From Raja brachyura (Eukaryota), in contig CAUPSL010000040.1 of assembly GCA_963514005.1 (NCBI GenBank), positions 1 to 59,551 on the forward strand: a DNA stretch of 59,551 nt, written 5' to 3'. Below the pieces are notes generated by a model. That model was not told the DNA's origin. It did not search any database and saw only the letters and a list, made by a program, of their open reading frames with translations. Made by a program: the position numbers and the translations under genes. Below, one piece after another: positions 12,227 through 57,820 of this stretch (its first letter is position 1; each line of letters starts with the position of its first letter).

Positions 12227-12262
12227 TGGCTTTTTGTAGTTCTATTCTCAAATTCGATAATT
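12227..12262 (-). CDS. Micro-exon, 36 nt, (E)LSNLRIELQKA
   Basis: ctaacgtttag|AATTATCGAATTTGAGAATAGAACTACAAAAAGCCA|gtaagg. Confidence 0.8.
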
Positions 12263-19696: not shown

Positions 19697-19714
19697 CTAT
19701 GTCGCTTCTGCCTT
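19697..19714 (-). CDS. Micro-exon, 18 nt, (E)GRSDI
   Basis: ttttttctcag|AAGGCAGAAGCGACATAG|gtaaga; very strong splice sites. Confidence 0.7.
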   Translation of the reverse strand, partial: KAEAT

Positions 19715-26433: not shown

Positions 26434-26460
26434 CTATATCTTTTGCAAGCATCTGTTTCA
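26434..26460 (-). CDS. Micro-exon, 27 nt, (M)KQMLAKDI
   Basis: cattcctacag|TGAAACAGATGCTTGCAAAAGATATAG|gtaatt. Confidence 0.75.
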
Positions 26461-26637: not shown

Positions 26638-26664
26638 TGCTCTCCGCAATAAGTTTTTCCAAAT
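26638..26664 (-). CDS. Micro-exon, 27 nt, (D)LEKLIAES
   Basis: tgattttag|ATTTGGAAAAACTTATTGCGGAGAGCA|gtgagt. Confidence 0.8.
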
Positions 26665-34213: not shown

Positions 34214-34600
34214 GCCTTTTCCTAATCAAGCCCTTTGTCCTTCTCTGCTGGTCTCTGAAGTTCTGCCAGTCCTCTGGTATGCTGCTTTTTCTGGCTACTT
34301 TGTGCGCATCATCCTTTGCTTTGATACTATCTCTGATTTCCCTTGTTATCCACGAGTGCACTACCTTCCCTGATTTATTCTTTTGCCAATACTGGGATGA
34401 ACAGTTTTTGTAGTTCATCCATGCAGTCTTTAAATGTCTTCCATTGCGTATTACCGTCAACCCTTTTAGAATTGATTGCCAGTCAATCTTGGCCAATTCA
34501 CATCTCATACCCTCAAAGTTACCTTTCTTTAAGTTCAGAACCATTGTTTCTGAATTAACAATGTCACTCTCCATCCTAATGAAGAATTCGACCATTTTGG
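34214..34600 (-). mobile_element. CR1 endonuclease-RT linker fragment, inverted
   Basis: MVEFFIRMESD..WITREIRDSIKAKDDA; homologous to 9795-10170. Confidence 0.88.
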
Positions 34601-34653: not shown

Positions 34654-34689
34654 CAATATCAGCAAGTGCTTTTTTCAGCCGGTCAGGTT
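34654..34689 (-). CDS. Micro-exon, 36 nt, (E)PDRLKKALADI
   Basis: ttccctggaatag|AACCTGACCGGCTGAAAAAAGCACTTGCTGATATTG|gtaaga; paralogous to 46421-46456. Confidence 0.85.
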
Positions 34690-35579
34690 CTATTCCAGGG
34701 AACGAAGGAAACAAGTATGAATATAAAGGTAATCCTTTTCGCCATCGGATAAAACTAGTTTCCATATTGTTGGATGAGTAACAGTTTGGAACAAATGTAA
34801 TAAATAAACAGTCAGTGAAGAAAAATATGTTGACGACAAATATACTGATAAATACTTCTGGGAAAGAATACAACGACATTCGGGAGCACCTGAGTTACCT
34901 TAGTTTGAAGGACTGGGTTTTTGCATTCGAGTTACATTACAACCTTTAGATTGTAAGATCGTATCTTTTATCTGCAATTCTAGGGACAAAATCCATTATT
35001 TCCAAATGGCCAATACCGAAGTTTCGCTTTTTCATTTCCATACCATAATTAAATTCGCTATGGATATGCTGGGCATGTGGTGGATGATCAAGTGGAAGAA
35101 TGACTGTCATCTGGATATTTCATCAAAGAAAAATGTTGTCACATGCGAATAGTTTCTTAGAATATTCATCATGTGACACAAAACAGAAAAAAGCCGAGAG
35201 AGAATTTTGAGAAGTTAAAAGCGAATCTGTATAGTTCTCCAAGCAACGACACCGCACTTCAAAAACAATTCATAAATAGTGGAATAATTTTTTTGACACA
35301 ACGAAAATGAAACTAAGTATAGAATGACGTAATGGCGGGCACGCTTTATAATACAAAATAAAGACTATATTTATGATACATCGTTAGCACAATATTCATT
35401 GGACATTGTATGACACTAAAGTAGGTGGTAACGTGGACAAAGTAGATATTTATTTAAAAAGCGTTCAGCTGGGCAAGTCGGCTCAAGATATTTTAGAACA
35501 TTTAGATATATTTTTTATTAATAAATGTCTGCAATTGATATCGCTAAATATGTTTCAGTGTCAGAGGACCCACGTGGAA

Positions 35580-36095
35580 TACATAGAAACATAGAAACAT
35601 AGAAAATAGGCGCAGCGGTAGGCTATTCGGCCCTTTGAGCCTGCACCTCCATTCAATACGATCATGGCTGATCATCCATCTCAGTATCCTGTACCTGCCT
35701 TCTCTCCATGCCCCCTGATCCATTTAGCCACAAGGGGCACATCTTACTCCCTCTTAAATATAGCCAATGAACTGGCCTGAACTACCTTCTGTTGCAGAGA
35801 ATTCCACAGAGTCACCATTCTCTGTGTGAAAAATTTGTTTCTCATCTCGGTCCTAAAAGACTCCCCCCTTATCCTCAAACGGTGACCCCTTGTTCTGGAC
35901 GTGCTCAACATCCGGAACAATTTTCCTGCATATAGCCTGTCCAACCCCTTAAGACATTTGTAAGTTTCTAAAAGATCCCCCCTCAATCTTCTAGATTCTA
36001 GCGAGTAAAAGCCGAGTCTATCCTGTCTTTCTTCATATGAAAGTCCTAGCATCCCAGGAATCAGTCTGGTGAATCTTCTCTGTACTCCCTCTATG
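35580..36095 (-). mobile_element. CR1 3' end with (TTCTATGT)n tail
   Basis: GLSYEERQDRLGFYSLESRRLRGDL; acatagaa repeats at 35581-35605. Confidence 0.92.
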
Positions 36096-37229
36096 AAATA
36101 CGTTCTTATTAATCGTATATTACTGTTTTGCTAAATATTGAGTGATGAATTGTATGAGCATAGCAACTGCATCTGTCTTTATACTTTATCATGACACGTA
36201 CTAAGAACATTTCCTATTCGGAAAAACCGCAGATGCACGCATGCCAAAAAGGTTGCACTTGCGTGGAGAAAAACACATATTGCAACTTTCTGGGTGAGGC
36301 ACGAAATCTCAAATTAGATCAGTGATTCCACAAACTGCCCTAAATATCCAACTAAATTCAATTTCCTGCGATAATCGCTGATTAAAAATTGCCACAGCGT
36401 GGATCAAAACATGTAGGTCTGCTTGCCATAATTTCCGACACAAGCAGAAATACACCAATTATTTTTGAGCATCAAGATCACAGGCACTTAGGTTTTATCT
36501 TCAAGGGAATTAAGGGAAGTGACACGGTAATATCACTGCCATAACCTAGTGGCTCGTTGTTACACTTGCTGTTTATAAGGATTTTTTTAATGAAAGCAGA
36601 ATAATGAGGAATTAATTTCAATATACGTAACATATAGTGGATTTACTATTGGGCGACATTGTTTCACTGTCTTACTTGAAGTTGACATTGTGGTGAAATT
36701 CAGCATTATTCTTCAAAAGAAAAACCATCTGCATATTTTCCATTATGCACCAGCAAATTGTTAATCTAATGTAAAGAAACCTATGAACGTGAAGAGTTGA
36801 CATTAATGAAACATCACGGGAATATTGGCGCCCATAAATATATGCTGACGTAGTCATTACTTGATATCAAGTGGTATGGATATTTTCGGATTACAATTTA
36901 CATTTATAAAATGGAGCACGATAACTGTTAATGCCAATGCGGCTGTAAAAGCACAACACTTATATTCGGGCTAGGATCTCAAATTATCGCCAAATGTAAA
37001 CGTTTTGAAATGGTGAATGTTCCTCTTGTTATTTTGCAGGAGAATAGTTTTACACTTATTTTTAGACTGGGTTGATTAATGTTATACCTCGGTGGCTTTT
37101 CGCATAGTGTAAAAGCACACGTCAATCAAAACAAGCATCAATATAGTCACAGAAATAAAATATTCTGCAGCAAAAATGTGACATTTTGTTACGAAGAACT
37201 GCTATAGTTTATATCGTTTCAGAACATAC

Positions 37230-37250
37230 CTTTGACTTCACCACCCTTCC
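37230..37250 (-). CDS. Micro-exon, 21 nt, (G)KGGEVK
   Basis: tttgatttgtag|GGAAGGGTGGTGAAGTCAAAG|gtatgt. Confidence 0.65.
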
Positions 37251-38390
37251 CTACAAATCAAATAAATGTATATATAAAATATATTACTGTTCTAGTTTTC
37301 TGAATAATTTGTAACAGGAAGATGGCAGGACTGCAGTCACACGTGTCTTCTGACGTTCGGTTCTTCGAGAAATTTCATTTAATGAGTTGCCACACAGAGT
37401 CACAAATGGTTGCTCCCAGTGTAAATGTTCAATTTTGCTTCTCCTTCCCCCAAACTCTCCATTACACGCGCAGCAATCTTCTCTCGGTAATACAATTGTA
37501 CATGCACTATTTGGTATATTTAACATTTCAGCGATGTGCGCAGAATCTCTTCGCCGAGATCAATTTGGTCAATTTGAGGATGGGAATTGTTATTCCAAAC
37601 AATTTTCCTCGTAGTGAACGGAACGATTTGAATGTTTAGATTACCCGTCTCCTCAAGCCTAATTTACATCGCAAGAGTGTTAAAGGAGTAGGTGAAGGAA
37701 CATAGAACCGGGAAAATACAATATGCAATAATGCAAACATCATTATTCTGTATGCCGAAATCAAAGGAGGTATTACTAGATGGGAGGAATACGGGAAGTG
37801 CAAACCACATCTCTGGCCAGTTTATTTTTCCTTCCATAATAAGGCACTGTAAATACTTTAACACAACGTTCGACGGTTAATTTCCATTTGTTTTTACCGT
37901 TCGGATTCAGATATAAATACATCAACTCATCGTTGATTACACTTTACCGTATGCATTTAATTAATTATAACAGTATCAAATAAAATAAATGTGTACAGTA
38001 AGTGGGGAAGAATGCAAACGCTTGAAAAAAACCTACTGGGATTTGAACAAATGCATTTTCTCAAGGGTACACCGAAGATTATACTTCTGTACGATATATT
38101 TCGTTTTATTTCCCCTGGATGCATGGTTCCCAAAACTGTCACCAACGTAAATATTAATTGTGCGCTTCTATTACGTTCACATGTATGTGGAACGGGTACA
38201 TTTCTCGAAGGTTCTAGAATGAAGTGCCGTATATGAATATGCTTTTTTTTTTGCACGTTTTCAGTTAAAATATTAGAGTTCGGGGGCCGACTGCCCGATT
38301 GCGATCGGGAACGATGCACTGAAATGCACTGACCTCCTTCTTCTTGTTTCCACTGAGACCACATCAGTTATAACTTCTTACCCCAACTAC

Positions 38391-38411
38391 CAGTGTTTTG
38401 CGCCATGTTAG
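38391..38411 (-). CDS. Micro-exon, 21 nt, (A)NMAQNT (30 nt if the downstream gtaaga donor is used)
   Basis: Long pyrimidine tract ...gtccttgcgcag|CTAACATGGCGCAAAACACTG|gtagttggg|gtaaga. Confidence 0.5.
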
Positions 38412-39993
38412 CTGCGCAAGGACAACGATGACGATGATAAAAAAAAAAGGATGGGTTACAATGTATGCAATTAATAACAGGGCACGAAACATATGACCAT
38501 GTCGCTTTTGAACAATATGAATTCATCGTAGTTGATGAATTTATTCTTGAACCATGCACTACTGTTCGGTAGATTTGGTTGTTCTGCCGCAGAAAATTAA
38601 ATAATTCAGTTGGCTTTGAAAGATGAAAAATCAATTTTGCGAAAGAAGCGGATATTTATTTACGATTTAATATCACAATTGCGTGAAATATTAAAAAAAA
38701 AATCCTGGTAAATTTGTAAACTTGCTAATAAATATACAATACTATCTATCATTCAAAATGAATGTTTCTGTGATTTTCTGAACAGTGGATGTTTAGTTGG
38801 AAGTGTGTGTCTTTTTTATATCAGGTAATAATCTTTAACAAACAAAATTAGATCTAAAGTCAAAATGTGGATAAGTAGTCTGCGATCTGTAAAGGGGTCC
38901 TCGTCCGATACCTCATTGTTCCATTTCCAGAAATGGGCGTTCATGGCCCGCTGAATTACTTCAGCAGTTTGTTTTGTACACAATGTTCTAGCATCGGTCA
39001 TTTGTTTAAACGCTTGCCTTCAAATAGTCCTCGGTAAACCCCTGTTTCAGTCGGCACTACATATCAATCTTTTTTTTGATGAGAAGAACAAGTTTCAGTT
39101 TTTATGATAAAGTGCCATGCATGTGAATATTCGACTTCCCAATGCAAATTATAGACGAAACAACGGCCATCGTATCATTTACGCCAATTATTGTTAATAG
39201 TGGCATTAACATGTCTATAGCATATTAATATGTAGGAATGCAGAGGTATGGATCACGTGAAGACAAATGAGGGTTGGTCTTGGAATCATGTGGCCACAGT
39301 CATTGTGGGATGAAGGTCCTGCTCCTGTGCTGTGCTTTGCTGTTCTATGTCTTATCAAGACGCAAAATGCTGGAATAACTCAACGGACAAGCAGCTGTTG
39401 TGAATAGGAGGAATGAGTGACCTTTCGTGTCGAGACCCCTCTGCATATATGCGCTGTACAATGAAGGCAATGAATACAGTCCGGTATGGTCATCACCTCT
39501 CCCTCAATTTCCCCGCCCCTTCCCAAATATTTATCAGCGCTGTGATTGTTAGCAAATCCTAACACCTTACTTATCTTCTGCTGACACCCTTTAGATAGGC
39601 TTGACCCATGACAGAGCGGAAAATGAAGTGCATTGACGCAAGAAGGTAAGCAAACTGCAGTAAGTACATTAGATTTAATAGAGCACAAAACACCAAACGA
39701 GCAACCCGTCGTCCCACTATGCATGCACAGACAATGAAACCAATCCAATCTAATCCTCTCTCCATACACTTGGTCCATACCCTCTAAACCAAAGGTACCC
39801 AACGTGGGATCAAATGTTCGCCTACCCAAGGGGGAAATTTGTTGATTCTGCGTTTGTACATATTTTTTCTCATTGTTTGGTTATAGTATATCGGTATATG
39901 TTCATCATAATTTGTTCATGAACAAGTGAAATAACATTGTTATGTGCTATTAAAGTTACCAAGGGTGAACGGAGCGAAAAATATTGGGATTAC

Positions 39994-40017
39994 CTGCACT
40001 AAACCCTTTACGGTTAA
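39994..40017 (-). CDS. Candidate micro-exon, 24 nt, (V)NRKGFSA
   Basis: gggcag|TTAACCGTAAAGGGTTTAGTGCAG|gtaatc; good donor, weak pyrimidine tract. Confidence 0.35.
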
Positions 40018-40377
40018 CTGCCCGGACCAATGCCTCTTGATTGTATGGTAAACATTTAGTTTGATAATTAATACAATCGTGACGTTGGTTATTAAATTCC
40101 ATGGAAAATGTCTAAACTTTGGTTCATACCGCACTCGTCCCTATCAATAGCTACATGTTGAGAATATAAATTACTACTAAAGTGTAAGAACGAAAGGTCT
40201 TTTCCACATAAGACCTAAAGATGTTTTACTTTTGTTCAACCCTGATACCAAAGTTCCGGCAATGGATACATTACCGTATTACAGAAAATACATTTGAAAC
40301 GGCTTCCATTTCAAATATATAGAGAATGAAACAAACACCATAAATAGCAACACAGACACATCATTATTGTCAACTAC

Positions 40378-40413
40378 CTGGTATTTTCATGTAATTTTTA
40401 ATTGCATCAAGTT
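40378..40413 (-). CDS. Micro-exon, 36 nt, (E)LDAIKNYMKIP
   Basis: tttatcctcag|AACTTGATGCAATTAAAAATTACATGAAAATACCAG|gtagtt; same size and E-hydrophobic-D-x-hydrophobic-K start as other 36-mers. Confidence 0.7.
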
Positions 40414-40509
40414 CTGAGGATAAATATTACCAGAGCAGTCAATATATTTGAACATTATACTTCTACTTTTGATATTTAGATTTTACATGATTTTTGGATG
40501 AAGCGAACG

Positions 40510-40750
40510 AATGATTTTCAAGTTAATAATGAAAATATATAAAATTAATAATAATAATAATAATAATAATGATAATAATGATAATGATAATATCCGTATT
40601 AGTGTTAATATTAATATTAAAACAATACTAATAATTAATAAATTAATACAACAATTAATATTCAAATTAATATTAATCAAATTTATCATATTAATATTAA
40701 TATTATAGTATGCTATAATTTTTATTAATATTATTTATTAATAATAATAA
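40510..40750. repeat. AT-rich low-complexity / (AAT)n microsatellite
   Basis: aataataataat.. and attaat runs. Confidence 0.9.
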
Positions 40751-41004
40751 ACACCAAACATATTATTCCAAGTACTGAATGTGTATAGCCGTATTTTGCA
40801 ACGCATAGGTAATTCGAATTGAATGTTGGATTATCCGAAAGAACGCCAGTACTGTTGTATGAAAACTATGACAACTATATTTTCGTGAATCAAATGATTA
40901 AAAGCGGGTGCCATGGTGACTTCCTTGTTTTATTTTTTTAATATATATATTTAATATATGTTTATAAATATTTATTTCACTGTTTACCTATTGATTCTAG
41001 ATAT

Positions 41005-41442
41005 CGGAATTGTACTCACTGGAATTTAGAAAATTGAGGGGGGATCTTATAGAAACTTACAGAATTCTTAAGGGGTTGGACAAGCTAGATGCAGGAAGAT
41101 TGTTTCCGATGTTGGGGGAGTCCAGAACAAGGGGTCACAGTCTAAGGATAAGGGGGAATTCCTTTAAGACCGAGAAGAGGAAAACATTAATTACACAGAG
41201 AGTGGTGAGTCTCTGGAATTCTCTGCCACAGAAGGTCGTTGAGGCCAGTTCATTGGCAATATTCAATAGGGAGTTGGATGTGGCTCTTGTGGCTTAAGGG
41301 ATCAGAGGGTATGGAGAAAAGGCAGTTGCGGGATACTGAGTTGGATGATCAGCCATGATCATATTGCATGGCGGTGCTGGCTCGAAGGGCCGAATGGCCT
41401 ACTTCTGGACCTTTTTTTCCATGTTTTTTCTATGTTTCTATG
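41005..41442 (+). mobile_element. CR1 3' end
   Basis: YSLEFRKLRGDLIETYRILKG; near-identical to 11625-12055. Confidence 0.92.
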
Positions 41443-42512
41443 AATGTCTGGATGAACAAATGCGATAGATCCAAATCGCACACTGTAGACGTTTCTTCTA
41501 TTCAAAGCTACCCGTGTGAGATTAAACACAGATCGTGTAACCATTTCATCTGACAATGACCCTTTGAAACTCGAACAGTGCATGTTCGCGCTTTTACTAA
41601 GAGAACCTAATATTACGTCAAGAAAAATGGAACAGCCTATCTCCGACTGTTGCGACATTCTTGTCTTGAGCAATTAATTGGAACATATTCATAGCACAAT
41701 ACCCTTACATTATCCTCTCCATCAACTGGAAGCAACCAAAATCACCGTACGCTCTTTATGTATGTTGGCGGAGGTTTCGTATAGTTATTGAACGCGTCGT
41801 TTCCAAAATGTTCCTGCGTCCTCCATCGTGTACATTTTCTGATTCTTCCTTCACTAGCTAAATACCAGCATTTTCGTAATAGGGCATACCTGCAAGCTTC
41901 TAATTCTCATATTTTTGGGGCCCGCACCTTCACTTCCGAACCTTCTGAACTACAAGCAACAAGTGCAATCGAAATCGCTTGATCATCGCTGTGAGCTTTA
42001 TAAAAAAATATACTGCCAACATTAGCATTTGTTTCTGAACAGCCCAGTGAAGATTACTAGGCTAATAACTAGTAGATTTTTTTGGTTGTGATTTTAGATA
42101 ATGCGCATACACCAGGCATTGTTTCTGGCATGGATTTAACAACCATGTCGTGCTGAATATTATTTCTTGACATGTAGACAGAACAAGGTGAAAGGGTGCG
42201 GCGAACGCATTATTTGCCAATTTAATCTAACGATATATCCAGGACATCAGTAGAGTGATAGGCACGCAATTGTTTAATAGTGAGGCAAGGCATTGATTAA
42301 TCTAAGTAATGTACATCAACAGTTGCACTGTGTGACTGGCAGTTAAAAGTGTAGTATTTCAAAAGAGCCCCTCACGCCCCCCCCCCGCCCCCGCCCCCAT
42401 CCATAATTCACTCATTCATTCTATGTGTGTTAACACACAATAAGATAGACACATTCATCGAAGTAGTGCCAGCCTTTACTGTCAGAAATATCCCATCGTG
42501 GAAATACGTTAC

Positions 42513-42539
42513 CTTGCTTCGTTTGCTTGAAACTTTCCG
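42513..42539 (-). CDS. Micro-exon, 27 nt, (A)ESFKQTKQ
   Basis: taatcatag|CGGAAAGTTTCAAGCAAACGAAGCAAG|gtaacg. Confidence 0.6.
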
Positions 42540-42759
42540 CTATGATTAATTGTATTAACGTTAGATTAATATTTCCACCTGTGCAATAAATACCAGCATC
42601 CTGCATGCAGACTATTACTTTGGCCATTTCGCTTTCTAAATTAACTTAGCGGACGTGATAAGTACATTTAACTTTCGGACGATATTGGTAATTATCAAAT
42701 ATTGAATCGGTGTGCTTCATTGTAAGCAGATACAGAAATGTAGTTATGACGTTGTCAAA

Positions 42760-43530
42760 TACTTATTAAAACTCTGATCTTGTGCATCTGTGTAAGTGTG
42801 TGTATGTATGTGGTTGGCTTTACATCTTCGACAAAAAACTACGTGGTATCGATAACATTATCACACATTTCCGTTGAGATTTTTCCAGTCGGGTCCGGGA
42901 TAACATTATCTGAACATTTCATACTTTGTTTCTCGAGTTATTGGTGATTAAAGCTTAAAAACATCAAAATACCTAAAAATTAAAATCACCAGCTTCAAAT
43001 GATGAAGTCACAATGATTCAGTTAGCAGAGACCACCCCGAATAAAAATTTCATCCTATATTTCACAAGTTATTCGCGATTACAGCTTAAACACTGCCAAC
43101 GTTCAGAAGATTTTTAACGTATTATGTATAGCCATTAAAGCTTTACAAATACCACCTTTCACAAGATATTTACATATTCTGATTTACATTTTCCCCCACG
43201 AGGCTTTCACTTTCACTGGACATTTTATGCTTTATTTCCGAACTATTATTGATTAATTACCGACCATCTTCAAATTATGAATTATTTCAATTCCAAGCCA
43301 ACCAGCTCCAAATGATGACGTCACAATAGCTCGACAAGAAGTGGGAGGGCGAATTGCTATTGCAACAAGCAGGGAAGTGCAATTGGATTTTTTTTAAGAC
43401 TACTGCTGAGGAAGGCGAGGGGAGTGCTGGAATGTTAAATTTGGGAAAGGCTTGCTTTGGACGACCACACCTGTCATGGGGCTACTGGTAGGGAACGGGT
43501 GCGTTGGATGAGCAGACCTGCAGTTCGTCT
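42760..43530. mobile_element. Unclassified old non-autonomous element, possibly Helitron-like
   Basis: 5' (TG)-rich microsatellite, internal dispersed repeats (accagct.caaatgatga.gtcacaat at ~42988 and ~43301), GC-rich 3' end. Confidence 0.3.
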
Positions 43531-43960
43531 TTATTAAATCTCTGAGGCAAATATGTCGGCATCTTATGTATTTAATTAACTTCCACCGAAAGATACAATT
43601 AAATTGACAAGATAATTTGGTTCTACCAAATATCTAAAAATATAGATTGCGGTTTTCATTATTGTCGTCAATTGACCTATTTTGTGCATTGTAAAATCTA
43701 TAGTTTACTCATATCGAACTCAAAGGAACGAACTCGTCTCAAAACCGCATTATTCTTTGTGGGCTCTGTGCCTTTGTGTCATTTAACTGCACCTTAAGAT
43801 ATCACATGTAAATGATCGTATTTGGTATCTGTGTGTAAAGTAAAGATAGTTTACGTGCGATATTGATTGTCTAACGTGACAGCAGAACAATCATGGTAAC
43901 GTGTCATGAAATATGGCAAACGAACGGGATATAATTCCAGAGGAGGAATAATGACCTTAC

Positions 43961-43987
43961 CGACATCAGTCTGCAGTCTCTTTAGAT
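43961..43987 (-). CDS. Micro-exon, 27 nt, (D)LKRLQTDV
   Basis: atttcgcttcag|ATCTAAAGAGACTGCAGACTGATGTCG|gtaagg. Confidence 0.8.
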
Positions 43988-45647
43988 CTGAAGCGAAATA
44001 AATCTAATATTAGTTCTGTATTTCATTTATATTGTAAGCGAGATAAGAAAGGGGCTCATTAGTTTTTGAATACGATTACAGTGCTTTGCAAGATCAAACG
44101 ATCGGCTTTGCTATTGATCACAAGGAAAGCTGCCATCGTGATTCTGTCATAGACGCTAATTCGCCAGGGTTTTGCTGAAAACTTCAATACTTGCTGCAAG
44201 ACAATGTTCGAATTCTGGCATTGCCTATGAGTTATCCTCGTTATTCACCATTCTGTTTTCATATTGTGCCACTTTCTCGGACACCACACCAGCCAATTAG
44301 CCTTGCCAATTATTTTCGCGCTCAAGATCCTTTCAGCAAATCAGCTTTGCGTTTCTGCCATGCGAACATCTCTCTAGATATCACCGTCGCCATATCTATT
44401 CAACTTTGAAACGTTTTAATTACACCTTACTGTTTTGTCGTCTGTCCGGAAATGTTATATATCCCCAGATTTCACATAATGTTGAGTTTTTGTGCCAGCT
44501 AGTAATATATTTGTGATGCGTAATTTCACATTACATTGTCCCTTATCCCACATATTATTATTCCTTGTTGTAAACAGTGTCTCCACATGGCTGCCCGAAT
44601 TGTTTGAACTCGGATGAATAATTTTAACTAAAAATAACATGAACCTTACATTGCTGCAATCGGATATCGGGATTTCGTTTATCCTGCTTCTAGATGCCTG
44701 AAAACGTTCCACAATACCTGCCTACATTAGTTATGGACACACGTATATATCCATGCGGCTTATCTTTGGAAACATTCTACCTCGCCGGAGTTCAAGGAAG
44801 AATCTGAAATGAGTTGGCAGAGACATTTATAAGAACGGGTGCAATTAGGACATTTCAAAAGTATTTGGGCGTATCTATGAATGTGTAGATATTGGAGGGC
44901 TGTCGGCCACATGCAGGTACAGGGTACTAGCACGGATTACCAACTTGCTCGCCATGGACACGGTCGGCCTAAACATGTATTTCCATGCAGCGGAGCTCCA
45001 TGTCTCTCCGGCTGCAGAATTCAACAGAATAAAATGACCATGAGACACACAAAAGTACCTCCTATAAAATACCTCATGTGACTGAAATAAGGATCCACTG
45101 AGTGCGTGTATTATATGCACCTTTCACGGTGTTGCTTTGAAAGAGCACCACAAGTTTGATTGGTGAAAATGGAAACCGGGGATTATTACATGACATTATT
45201 GTGTAAGCATATATTTAATCAGGAATACATAATTAAACTGCAAGTGGGAATGCGGCAATAACGGCCTTAATTAGTCCAAATGAAGCTATAATATATAACA
45301 CAAAACATATGAAATATTCCCGCTGAAATATTATCAGTCTCTCTAACTTATTGTAGATTATTTATTTCAACTTTGTTGAATTGGAATTAATCTAAGGAAA
45401 AGTCTCCAGGGAATAAGTGAGTCTCCGTTAATACCTACATGCACAGTTTACATACAGCAGTCTAATTTAACTAGGCAGTGGCAATATTGAACACATTTGT
45501 TCTGCTTCTCAAAAGTGAAGGTTGAACATCGGAAACAAGCACCTGTTCTTTAAAATTAATGCATTGGACATATTAAGCAATGCTAATCAGCTACATATAA
45601 ATTTACCAAGACGCGTGAAAACTATTTCGGGGAAACGGTATTTTTAC

Positions 45648-45665
45648 CTCCTCTGAATTCCCTTG
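45648..45665 (-). CDS. Micro-exon, 18 nt, (T)REFRG
   Basis: tgtttgcag|CAAGGGAATTCAGAGGAG|gtaaaa. Confidence 0.55.
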
Positions 45666-46420
45666 CTGCAAACATTTGAAAACAAAAATGAGATGAGTCG
45701 GCAGAGCATTGTGAAAAACTAACTAAAGCGCATGAATACTAGAACTCAACTAGAAATCATAACAACGGTGATTCGGGTTGAGTTTTAGAGGGTGTCGCCG
45801 CAGGAATCCATACATATCGTGCTTATGTGCATAACTAGTTTCGGACAGGTGCAGGTAGAAAAAAAATGTACACCTGCAGTGTGAATTGTTGATTAGAAGC
45901 CACTGCGGCTGACGTCGTGCTTTGATACTTCAGAAACAATTGTCTGGCTTGTGGCAAAGTTCAGTGGTCAGGGTGGAATGCGCCAAACGGGATCAGCACC
46001 TCAAACGCCAATCCGAAAGCAATCACATTAGTCATTGTTTTCCAACTTTGTGTGCCACCCTACATCAGTTTCCTCTAAGTATTCCCACCGAACTAAGTCC
46101 GACGATACCTTTCATTCTTGCGTGTCGTTACCCAGCATCCACCTGCCATTAACTCTCCGCCTTTTTAGTCGTTGTTATCCTCCACCCTCTCCCAATCAGC
46201 CATAATCTGTTGTTCTTATCGTCCCACTCCCACTCTCCACTATGCTGGTTATCCCCACTTTCCCTTTTATTTCCTCGGTCCTTCTGCAGGGTTTCATCCG
46301 AGAGGTAAACCATTCTCCACCCCACCCCCCAACCCCAAAGTTCCTACTCAAATTTTAGCTATAAAATAGTCGTCTTAGTAACAATATATTGAAAACGATT
46401 AAAGGGTTTGAGTAGCTTAC

Positions 46421-46456
46421 TGATATCAGCGAGAGCCTTCTTCAAGGTATCCACTT
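46421..46456 (-). CDS. Micro-exon, 36 nt, (E)VDTLKKALADI
   Basis: cattttag|AAGTGGATACCTTGAAGAAGGCTCTCGCTGATATCA|gtaagc; paralogous to 34654-34689. Confidence 0.85.
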
Positions 46457-47908: not shown

Positions 47909-47935
47909 CTTGTGCTTTTTCTATAAGCGTTCTTT
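47909..47935 (-). CDS. Micro-exon, 27 nt, (E)RTLIEKAQ
   Basis: ttcctgtcgtcgttcacag|AAAGAACGCTTATAGAAAAAGCACAAG|gtgagt. Confidence 0.8.
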
Positions 47936-47940
47936 CTGTG

Positions 47941-49677
47941 AACGACGACAGGAAATAACAACGTTTCCTCTCTCCACTTAGGTCCTATGACGGTCTAGGT
48001 TTTTTAGCATTTCGGCATTTTCGAATTTAAATTCAGATATTTTTGTTATTTTTGTTATTTGTGTTATTTTTGCTTTTCAGATAATGTGTAGATGTATAGT
48101 GGCATTATATTTGGAAAGTAAAGCAAGACTATTGCGATCGAGATTATTGAGCGTTTCTATTACAGTCGATTATCGTAACATAGATATTGATTTAACTGAT
48201 TGGATTTGATTTGTCCAAGGGGCGAAAATATATATTACTGAAGAGAAGATAACCTTCAATATTCCCTGCTATGATTCTTTTGTCCAAAGAAAGATGGCAA
48301 ACTTCATTTGGAGGGGTTGTGAAGCGGGGGCATGATTCAGACGATAAATTATATTGAACAAGCAATTGAATCATCAAATCAAAGAAGGCTGTAGATCGTG
48401 TACAGGAAAACGCTGGCGTAAATGGTGAATGTTGCGATGTCATAGTCATACAGTCATAGAGCGGGACAGCATGCAAACAGGTCCTTGGACCCAATCTGCA
48501 CACACAGGCCAACATATGCCAAACTGCCTGCGTTTGGTCCACATCCCCCCAATCCGGTCCTATCCATCTAGCACCTTGGCCAACTTTTTCCGTCCACCCG
48601 CCACGTTTTATGTGATAACTTGAACCCTCAGATTCCTATTATTTTTATGTTGGCATAATTCATTTATTGTGTCAATAATTGGGCCATCTACATCTAAAAT
48701 ACAAATCACATTCTTGAACAGTTTTTTTTTTAACTGGAGTGTACCAAAACGTAGGTTTTTCACCGTATCTTGTTAGTCGTCACAATAAACATAAACTAAA
48801 TTCAAGCTCGACTGCCACAAATTTTCCCTTTCTTGTCCTAATCTTGTTGTGCAACGTATAACTTTGCAACTTATTTTCGTATTTTTCGAATTCATATCAT
48901 ACTTTTCATGTTTCTATTTACGTATTGTGATACATGCTGAAGCACCATAAAAGGAGAAAATATATTGCCTGGGGTGCTAACGAAGATAACGACGACAGGA
49001 AATAATAACGTTTCCTCTCTCCACTTAGGTCTTATGACGTCTAGGTTTTTTAACATTTCGGCATTTTCGAATTTAAATTCCGATATTTTTGTTATTTTTG
49101 TTATTTTTGTTATTTTTGCTTTTCAGATAATGTATAGTGGCATTATATTTGGAAAGTAAACCAAGACTATTGCGATCGAGATTATTGTGCGTTTTAATTA
49201 CAGTTGATTATCGTAACTTTCTTATTGATTTAACTGATTGTATTTGATTTCTCCAAGGAACGAAAATATATATTACTGGAGAGAAGATAACCTTCAATAT
49301 TCCCTGCTATGATTCTTTTGTCCAAAGAAAGATGGCAAACTTCATTTGGAGGAGGTGTGGGGCGGGGCATGATTCAGACGCTAAATTATATTGAACAGGC
49401 AATTGAATCATCAAATCAAAGAACGCTGTAGGTCGTGTACAGAAAAACGCTGGCTTAACTGGTGAATGTTGCGATGTCATAGTCATAGAGTCATAGAGTG
49501 GGACAACATGCAAACAGGTCCTTGGACCCAATCTCCACACACAGGACAACATATGCCAAACTGCCTGCGTTTGATCCACATCCCCCCAATCCGGTCCTAT
49601 CCATCTAGCACCTTGGCCAACTTGTTCCGTCCACCCGCCACCTTTTATGTGATAACTTTACCCTCAGATTCCTATTA
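47941..49677 (+). repeat. Local direct duplication of ~700 bp (47941-48641 and 48988-49677)
   Basis: Colinear high identity, reflected in twin ORFs 48192-48542/49307-49579 and 48429-48623/49466-49903; includes unique intronic sequence and a SINE-like fragment. Confidence 0.95.
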
Positions 49678-49822: not shown

Positions 49823-49858
49823 CCATTGCTTTCACGGTCTTTTCCAGTTCGTCAAATT
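49823..49858 (-). CDS. Micro-exon, 36 nt, (E)FDELEKTVKAM
   Basis: tttttatttcgcag|AATTTGACGAACTGGAAAAGACCGTGAAAGCAATGG|gtgagc. Confidence 0.85.
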
Positions 49859-57796: not shown

Positions 57797-57820
57797 CGGT
57801 GCCTCTCAAGGATTCTATTT
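57797..57820 (-). CDS. Micro-exon, 24 nt, (E)IESLRGT
   Basis: tttttgcttag|AAATAGAATCCTTGAGAGGCACCG|gtgagt. Confidence 0.75.

Follow-up and report, generated by a model that had tools for sequence, protein, structure and literature searches.

The locus analysed here raises the question of whether two 36-nt segments that both encode LKKALADI are genuine coding exons, whether they descend from one exon, and what protein they would help to build. The window, 59,551 nt of Raja brachyura DNA, is a whole unplaced contig, which holds no further sequence. Six-frame translation places LKKALADI in it twice, at 46421-46456 and 34654-34689, 11,767 nt apart, as the first-pass annotation had reported; both copies lie on the minus strand, which had not been given there. 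The equal length and phase claimed for the pair were confirmed: each is a 36-nt exon between ag and gtaag, in phase 1-1, and its leading E is a split codon. We consider the segments to be probable coding micro-exons that arose when a single exon was duplicated long ago; the gene holding them is predicted to code for a long, soluble rod of the coiled-coil/B30.2 family.

The shared residues use unlike codons at 6 of the 8 positions, as claimed, and the exons agree at 22/36 nt. Counting synonymous and non-synonymous changes, as had been proposed, gave a pS of about 1.1 and a pN of 0.15. Six unlike codons are at the level of unrelated codon choice (4.9 expected, P(>=6) = 0.35), so the silent-site trace of common descent is gone. 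The reported lack of flank similarity also held (alignment 0.47, where 200 random flank pairs gave 0.49 +/- 0.05). Matches between the 2-kb flanks of the two exons, in any copy of the array, are out of register, as dispersed repeats would be. The exons and candidate exons of the window are listed in the table.

Table. Exons and candidate exons of the window (positions in the window)
Feature	Position	Strand	Remarks
24-nt candidate exon EIESLRGT	57797..57820	-	strong splice sites; without collinear copy in A/B; prediction only
36-nt exon EFDELEKTVKAM	49823..49858	-	intact in A and B
27-nt exon ERTLIEKAQ	47909..47935	-	intact in A and B
36-nt phase-1 exon EVDTLKKALADI (first exon of the first-pass annotation)	46421..46456	-	AG/GTAAG; intact in A and B; single-copy depth
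18-nt exon AREFRG	45648..45665	-	intact in A and B
27-nt exon DLKRLQTDV	43961..43987	-	intact in A and B
27-nt exon AESFKQTKQ	42513..42539	-	acceptor weak, yet intact in A and B
36-nt exon ELDAIKNYMKIP	40378..40413	-	donor weak, yet intact in A and B
21-nt doubtful exon GKGGEVK	37230..37250	-	B: intact as 18 nt; A: donor lost; uncertain
36-nt phase-1 exon EPDRLKKALADI (second exon of the first-pass annotation)	34654..34689	-	AG/GTAAG; A and B copies intact, with 89-97% identity
27-nt exon DLEKLIAES	26638..26664	-	intact in A and B
27-nt exon VKQMLAKDI	26434..26460	-	intact in A and B; type of Narcine protein residues 125-133
18-nt exon EGRSDI	19697..19714	-	A: intact; B: donor lost, frame-neutral
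36-nt candidate exon ELSNLRIELQKA	12227..12262	-	good splice sites and class pattern; without collinear copy; prediction only

The window probably supplies the part absent from one gene, most likely the one termed B0, of a cluster on contig C25, which also bears MHC genes. The paralogues A, B0 and B of this cluster are collinear. The window has 17.6 kb of sequence in common with B and 14.5 kb with A; with B0 it has 0.7 kb in common, an assembly gap (C25:29,963,013) lying where B0 would carry the window's block. Since the ends of the window do not overlap the flanks of this gap, we infer its placement in B0. A strict, untrained scan of 1.4 Mb found 117 micro-exons on the gene strands versus 4 on the opposite ones; a trained and thus partly circular scan of 1.6 Mb predicted 255 versus 3, and these 255 include 123 exons of 27 nt, 91 of 36 nt and 1 of 21 nt. 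The exons of the cluster are symmetric and in phase 1, of 27 and 36 nt but also of 18 and 24 nt, with 76-78 predicted in A and B0. A 109-nt ATG exon, which encodes no signal peptide, is conserved in A, B0 and B. The exons predicted in A are intact in 31/32 cases in B0, 15/16 in B and 9/9 in the window (together 55/57), versus 45/236, 34/191 and 12/58 for control AG..GT pairs (together 91/485). Ten window exons compared across three copies show 22 silent and 30 replacement changes (dN/dS about 0.35, p = 3e-4). Across the cluster dN/dS is 0.81, from 109 non-independent pairs, so that residue constraint is modest. A and B0 end before the later exons of B, and no terminal exon was identified. Linkage of the paralogues to the MHC is indicated by 7/12 MHC_I matches and most of 150 scored SPRY matches falling on C25; the closest class I match lies at a distance of about 5 Mb, and the window's own contig is unplaced.

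How the pair arose can be weighed against this background. Fragments of repeats, or chance splice-like patterns, are scarcely credible as an explanation: each LKKALADI exon with its flank matches three places in the genome (3/3 candidates), namely itself and two on C25, and is not a repeat. The DNA depth at the exon at 46421, the one covered, is about 8, a single-copy value, versus thousands to about 1 million in adjoining repeat bins. The strand bias and the conservation in paralogues point the same way, against the precedent of one candidate exon from the same scan (34523-34549), which proved repeat-derived, with 19 matches in 1.6 Mb, and was dropped. Contigs of two related organisms span the exon at 46421, with no difference inside it among the 40 rows listed (111 more exist). 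A more serious, if unlikely, alternative is that the exons are real and their identity is convergence or luck, both lying near the 36-nt class consensus in one copy. The pair is indeed close to that consensus (L5, K6, L9, D11), was picked as the best of many, has lost silent-site and intron similarity alike, and agrees at only 5/8 residues in paralogue A and in B. A block duplication of six exons around each copy is unsupported as well, 32%, 16% and 78% of same-length pairs scoring equally. We compared 106 36-nt exons in 62 flank-homology clusters. Among 5,484 cross-cluster pairs the LKKALADI pair alone has a run of 8 identical residues, and 3,000 column shuffles, which keep the class composition, reproduced a run of that length in 0.3% and 9/11 identities in 0.5%. 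At every motif position but one case, moreover, the window residue occurs in at least one paralogue. Topping all cross-cluster pairs at so low a shuffle frequency makes an old duplication likely, and the exon duplication proposed in the first-pass annotation is the most likely origin of the pair. The purifying selection proposed there applies to the exon array, as the dN/dS of the window exons and their intactness indicate; the motif itself is not strongly constrained. Within the eight residues, the four collinear A and B exons differ from the window copies by 6 amino-acid-changing and 3 silent differences, and since the paralogous copies have only 5/8 residues in common, LKKALADI is not frozen. 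Nor is the pair the strongest internal evidence for the micro-exons, as had been stated: the strand bias, the exons intact in paralogues and the exon-by-exon protein match of a neighbouring gene are all stronger.

That match comes from the neighbouring array A0, where 16/18 best matches follow one another along Narcine bancroftii XP_069775384.1, and a B30.2 exon follows the array in frame (E 2e-33). The annotated Narcine relative, from an electric ray, consists of a coiled coil and B30.2, without RING, Ig or membrane segment. Its isoforms, from which the exon structure of this model was deduced, differ by blocks of 6 and of 9 residues, the longer of which corresponds to one predicted exon. The rod exons of the cluster are of the phase-1, 27- and 36-nt types of this protein; the window exon at 46421 matches best to its residues 167-178 (score 26), and residues 10-18 are where the first micro-exon of A and of B0 scores highest, these being the best two among three candidates listed. 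A second B30.2 exon, 70% identical to that of A0, lies at C25:31.327 Mb and is preceded by matching micro-exons; neither the window nor any of A, B0 and B was found to have one. In a midpoint-rooted tree of 36 rows, the B30.2 domains of the cluster group with proteins of rays, sharks and chimaeras in a single clade (11/36 rows, support 100/100), apart from BTN and TRIM B30.2. Four RefSeq automatic models share the coiled coil and this clade: XP_069775384.1 ('zinc-binding protein A33-like'), Scyliorhinus canicula XP_038672306.1 ('TRIM39-like'), Callorhinchus milii XP_042191566.1 ('TRIM58') and Hemiscyllium ocellatum XP_060706632.1 ('BTN3A1-like'). These names imply RING or Ig domains, whereas Pfam finds neither. 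Isoforms of these relatives differ by 6 or 9 residues. The models are 175-460 aa long, in contrast to the 76-78 exons predicted for A and B0, and the window's gene has no adjacent B30.2. A weak protein search with a 12-exon profile returned 0/7,994 candidates at E <= 10 and no protein with the window's exons. We found no description of the family in the literature covered, mostly outside subscription journals.

The exons of the window would lie in the middle of a gene for a long soluble coiled-coil rod of this cartilaginous-fish coiled-coil/B30.2 family. The 36-nt exons would give a hydrophobic seam at positions 2, 5, 9 and 12, which the 27-nt linker exons would carry on at position 4, so that 12 + 9 residues would make three heptads. 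The hydrophobic share at the four positions is 83%, 80%, 57% and 35% (101 exons). As all exons begin and end in phase 1, their duplication, loss or skipping would cause no frameshift and would change the length of the rod. The order of exons gave a 3.5-3.6 periodicity above shuffles only in A (2/60 as high) and B0 (0/60), with no excess in A0, B and C. The periodicity peak of the Narcine rod is 3.04. AlphaFold, run without an alignment, predicted three long helices and then strands for the Narcine protein, at low confidence (mean pLDDT 54), and the homodimer prediction for its rod scored 0.44 versus 0.49 for the control. Such rods would oligomerise in the cytoplasm, and those that have B30.2 domains would use them as binding heads. 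The window's gene, which is probably B0, resembles a paralogue made of the rod alone. From location alone we infer an immune role for the cluster. A CD23-like lectin neck was also considered and dropped, a crude motif scan showing no lectin domain.

Other readings of the window's gene differ in where it ends and whether it is active. It might be part of one giant transcript that takes in B0, B and C and stops at the B30.2 exon at 31.33 Mb, which would give the rod a B30.2 end. Between 29.79 and 30.79 Mb the plus strand carries micro-exons almost without a break, the distal end resembles A0 in finishing in B30.2, and no B30.2 intervenes in the part examined, up to 30.80 Mb and again from 31.305 Mb. 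We regard this as unlikely: B carries its own ATG exon, A begins past the B30.2 stop codon of A0 with no B30.2 before the next gene, and the annotated relatives found are short. A further speculative and rather unlikely reading is a single gene of about 1.1 Mb, from the ATG exon at C25:30.19 Mb to the B30.2 at 31.33 Mb, whose roughly 200 interchangeable micro-exons would encode a rod of about 2,000 residues tuned in length by skipping, while paralogues consisting of the rod alone, the window's gene among them, would pair with it as decoys or regulators; if true, cartilaginous fishes alone would have this cytosolic immune scaffold of variable length. That the gene of the window was copied incompletely in a segmental duplication and is now silent, its intact exons reflecting past selection, is improbable. 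In favour of it, the later exons of B are missing from A and B0, decayed exons lie upstream of B0, one donor is lost in B, and dN/dS across the cluster is 0.81; against this, the aligned exons, including all nine of the window, stayed intact far beyond controls after about 20% intron divergence. It is very improbable that the array encodes the cytoplasmic tail of a membrane receptor akin to BG or butyrophilin, with Ig and membrane exons missing from the assembly. Assembly gaps are present, MHC class I lies on the same contig, and chicken BG has the same phase-1 heptad-exon design (PMC5938342). However, the conserved ATG exon runs into micro-exons without a signal peptide, Ig V, Ig C and RING profiles gave nothing significant in the window and in 1.6 Mb of C25 on either side of 30.80-31.305 Mb, 0/20 Ig-pattern frames match Pfam, and seven relatives lack any 19-residue stretch above hydropathy 1.53.

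The soluble rod that we favour can be compared with known proteins. Enterophilin-1 of the guinea pig is a soluble protein with long heptad repeats and a C-terminal B30.2 domain; it is mammalian, and its architecture is like that predicted for the skate family. In the skate family no IgV, IgC or membrane segment as in butyrophilins was found, nor the RING and B-box of TRIM proteins (by Pfam in family proteins, with no significant RING match in 1.6 Mb), and its rods are far longer than those of either. Butyrophilins and TRIM-B30.2 proteins resemble it (PMC8813856, PMC12841164) in having heptads or a coiled coil followed by B30.2 and in clustering on the MHC chromosome. Chicken BG and a soluble zipper protein (PMC5938342, PMC8813856) have a long heptad region whose numerous tiny exons begin with split codons, as here, and the skate cluster likewise has many tiny phase-1 heptad exons. 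MHC linkage and variation in copy number are shared too, and BG has a soluble tail form. BG has signal, IgV and membrane exons, of which none was found in the skate cluster, and exons mostly of 21 nt, in contrast to 27 and 36 nt in the skate (1/255 of 21 nt). Unlike BG, the skate family has B30.2.

The LKKALADI pair itself is a minor detail; the locus is what counts. Hundreds of predicted 27- and 36-nt exons are spread over more than 1.5 Mb of the chromosome that bears the MHC, and the databases hold relatives only as short models named TRIM or butyrophilin, without the domains that define those names. The rod-only paralogues suggest that arrays here need not all finish in B30.2. If the genes are expressed as predicted, the tail design of chicken BG, with its tiny symmetric heptad exons, would reach the cartilaginous fishes in a soluble form, and the cluster would be a natural test of the splicing of hundreds of micro-exons and of the evolution of rod length.

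The two 36-nt exons described in the first-pass annotation lie on the minus strand of the window and carry the only two occurrences of LKKALADI in its six-frame translation. Both are phase 1, bounded by ag and gtaag, and differ in 6 of the 8 shared codons; they are identical at 22/36 nucleotides (pS ~1.1, pN 0.15), with silent sites completely scrambled. As had been claimed, their flanks show no obvious similarity (0.47, compared with 0.49 +/- 0.05 for random flank pairs). Origin from a dispersed repeat fails as an explanation, because each exon with its flank has three genomic matches, itself and two on C25, the MHC-bearing contig of this genome, and DNA reads cover the 46421 exon at single-copy depth. 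Common descent is more likely than not, since the pair ranks top among 5,484 pairs from 62 clusters and shuffle trials attained its likeness in only 0.3-0.5% of cases. The proposed growth by old exon duplication is favoured to that extent. The paralogous exons read LKTAFADI and LKKALADN in array B of C25 and LKKTIADI and LKKALVDI in array A, with 5/8 residues identical between the two exons within either array, and neighbouring exons give no support for block duplication around the pair. Together with the scrambled silent sites, this suggests that the motif is modest evidence for old duplication and none for special constraint.

The codon pattern had also been read as purifying selection, which holds for the array; the motif itself is not strongly constrained, the paralogue copies differing there by 6 replacement and 3 silent changes. 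Paralogue comparison gave 14 candidate window exons, 10 of them intact in both A and B. Counts over three copies of ten window exons were 22 silent changes (55 sites) and 30 replacement changes (212 sites), a replacement/silent rate ratio of 0.35 (p = 3e-4). The pairwise ratio was 0.49 between the window and its paralogues (12 pairs) and 0.81 over all flank-homologous cluster pairs (109 non-independent pairs). Exons predicted in A were intact (AG, GT, frame, no stop) in 31/32 aligned cases in B0, 15/16 in B and 9/9 in the window, against 45/236, 34/191 and 12/58 for randomly drawn AG..GT pairs with matched spacing. These comparisons argue that selection firmly keeps the exons and their frame, and the residues loosely. 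The repeat look-alike listed in the table would mislead a scan for micro-exons as a false positive, and new exons may arise from such copies.

Coordinates of the arrays and neighbouring features
Feature	Location	Strand	Remark
LKKALADI exon	window 46421-46456	minus	36 nt
LKKALADI exon	window 34654-34689	minus	36 nt
Repeat look-alike	window 34523-34549	minus	ready-made 27-nt phase-1 exon look-alike; 19 matches in 1.6 Mb
Tandem duplication	window 48092-48626 + 49130-49663		about 1,037 nt, 92-94% identical; intron between two exons
Array A0	C25 29.743-29.615 Mb	minus	predicted micro-exons
A0 local expansion	C25 29.643-29.659 Mb, within 29,612,368-29,742,662	minus	cysteine-ending 36-nt exons
Array A	C25 29.567-29.256 Mb, after A0	minus	predicted micro-exons
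Internal duplications of A	C25 29,256,000-29,296,000 and 29,334,000-29,371,000	minus	recent, multi-exon, near-identical introns
RRM gene start	C25 29,230,841-29,231,086	minus	Pfam RRM_1; bounds A
Array B0	C25 29.787-30.123 Mb	plus	predicted micro-exons
Array B	C25 30.193-30.433 Mb	plus	predicted micro-exons
Array C	C25, beyond B	plus	predicted micro-exons
Relics of A0's last exons	C25 29,770,000-29,775,000 and 30,170,000-30,176,000	plus	precede B0 and B
Nearest relative of A0's B30.2	C25:31,326,524	plus	70%
B30.2 exons of family clade	C24 15.71 and 17.67-17.71 Mb		C24, another contig
B30.2 exon cluster	C25 33-42 Mb		very large; at least 412 SPRY candidates genome-wide

The window is an entire unplaced contig. 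C25 was covered at 29.2-30.8 Mb and over about 23 kb near 31.32 Mb. An untrained scan of 1.4 Mb found 117 27/36-nt phase-1 exons on the gene strands and 4 on the opposite ones; a trained, partly circular scan of 1.6 Mb gave 255 micro-exons versus 3 (123 of 27 nt, 91 of 36, 15 of 18, 11 of 24 and 15 other). A, B0 and B are paralogues in collinear order, with 77-81% identity across their low-copy sequence. The window has 17.6 kb in common with B (83% identity) and 14.5 kb in common with A (77%); with B0 the shared length is 0.7 kb. It is probably the missing part of B0, because B0 lacks the window's exon block at an assembly gap (29,963,013) while B and A share it; the window's ends do not overlap the flanks of that gap. 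C25 holds seven of the 12 MHC class I matches, at 18-24 Mb, and most of the 150 scored SPRY matches, chiefly at 33-42 Mb.

A, B0 and B have in common a 109-nt ATG exon (36 polar residues, no indel or stop, phase-1 donor), followed by a 27-nt exon resembling residues 10-18 of the Narcine bancroftii protein XP_069775384.1. A starts beyond the stop codon of A0's B30.2; A-B similarity stops about 1.2 kb past A's last exon, and profile search found no B30.2 between A and the RRM gene (presumably RBM4/RBM14-like) 25 kb further on. B0 ends before B's own start, and a search for Ig V, Ig C and RING exons found none in the 1.6 Mb of C25 or the window. With their own ATG exon, an array end lacking B30.2 and no Ig or RING exon, A and B0 appear to be rod-only genes, with 76-78 exons predicted and about 730-760 residues, window excluded; alternatively, there may be read-through to the distant B30.2 near 31.33 Mb. 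The A0-end relics ahead of both B0 and B, which lack the B30.2 exon and of which one, in B0, is visibly decayed, indicate that the duplicated unit is the junction between two tandem genes. Array A, with its recent internal duplications, appears to be still growing by block duplication.

A B30.2 profile built on 30 loci from this genome picked out a single B30.2 exon across the 1.6 Mb and the window (E 2e-33), directly preceded, in frame, by A0's final micro-exon. Micro-exons ahead of its nearest relative in the genome mirror the end of A0; three C24 exons are more distant (34-40%). Among 154 candidates, the sole database match at E <= 1e-10 was the Narcine 'zinc-binding protein A33-like' (63% identity), whose N-terminal part is tiled in order by 16/18 matching A0 candidates in steps of 8, 9, 10 and 12 residues. 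A0 is likely its near-complete orthologue, and the first exons of A0 may lie inside a gap at 29,750,751. Two blocks, of 6 and of 9 residues, distinguish the Narcine isoforms, and the longer one matches one of the predicted exons; catshark isoforms differ by 9 residues. RefSeq models with multiple isoforms are usually supported by RNA. Relatives are known from catshark, basking shark, epaulette shark, bamboo shark and chimaera; Pfam recognizes only their B30.2 parts, and strongly hydrophobic segments are absent from all of them. Their B30.2 domains group with the five of this genome in a single clade (11/36 rows, 100/100), separate from those of butyrophilins and TRIM proteins.

Because every exon is phase 1-1, the frame survives when exons are gained, lost or skipped. 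Hydrophobic residues occupy positions 2, 5, 9 and 12 in 83, 80, 57 and 35% of 101 36-nt exons, and mostly position 4 in 27-nt exons (57% of 147). Residues in 12+9 would yield three heptads, and 12+6 or 9+9 would yield 18-residue units. Native exon order beats shuffles for a 3.56-3.60 period in A and B0, an advantage absent in A0, B, C and the Narcine rod. Such arrays would encode cytosolic coiled-coil rods that oligomerise and vary in length, some members carrying a B30.2 binding head.

No description of this cartilaginous-fish family was found in the literature searched; enterophilin is, we presume, an architectural analogue. Butyrophilin differs in its Ig and membrane segments and TRIM in its RING, none of which was found here. 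The rod would work as the chicken BG tail does (PMC5938342, PMC8813856); unlike BG, no Ig or membrane exons were found, and exon sizes differ. An immune role is suggested by location alone, and a cytoskeletal role, by analogy with the chicken zipper protein (cited in PMC5938342 and PMC8813856), is just as plausible. The micro-exon pair and its array are a real feature, a variation on an already known design.
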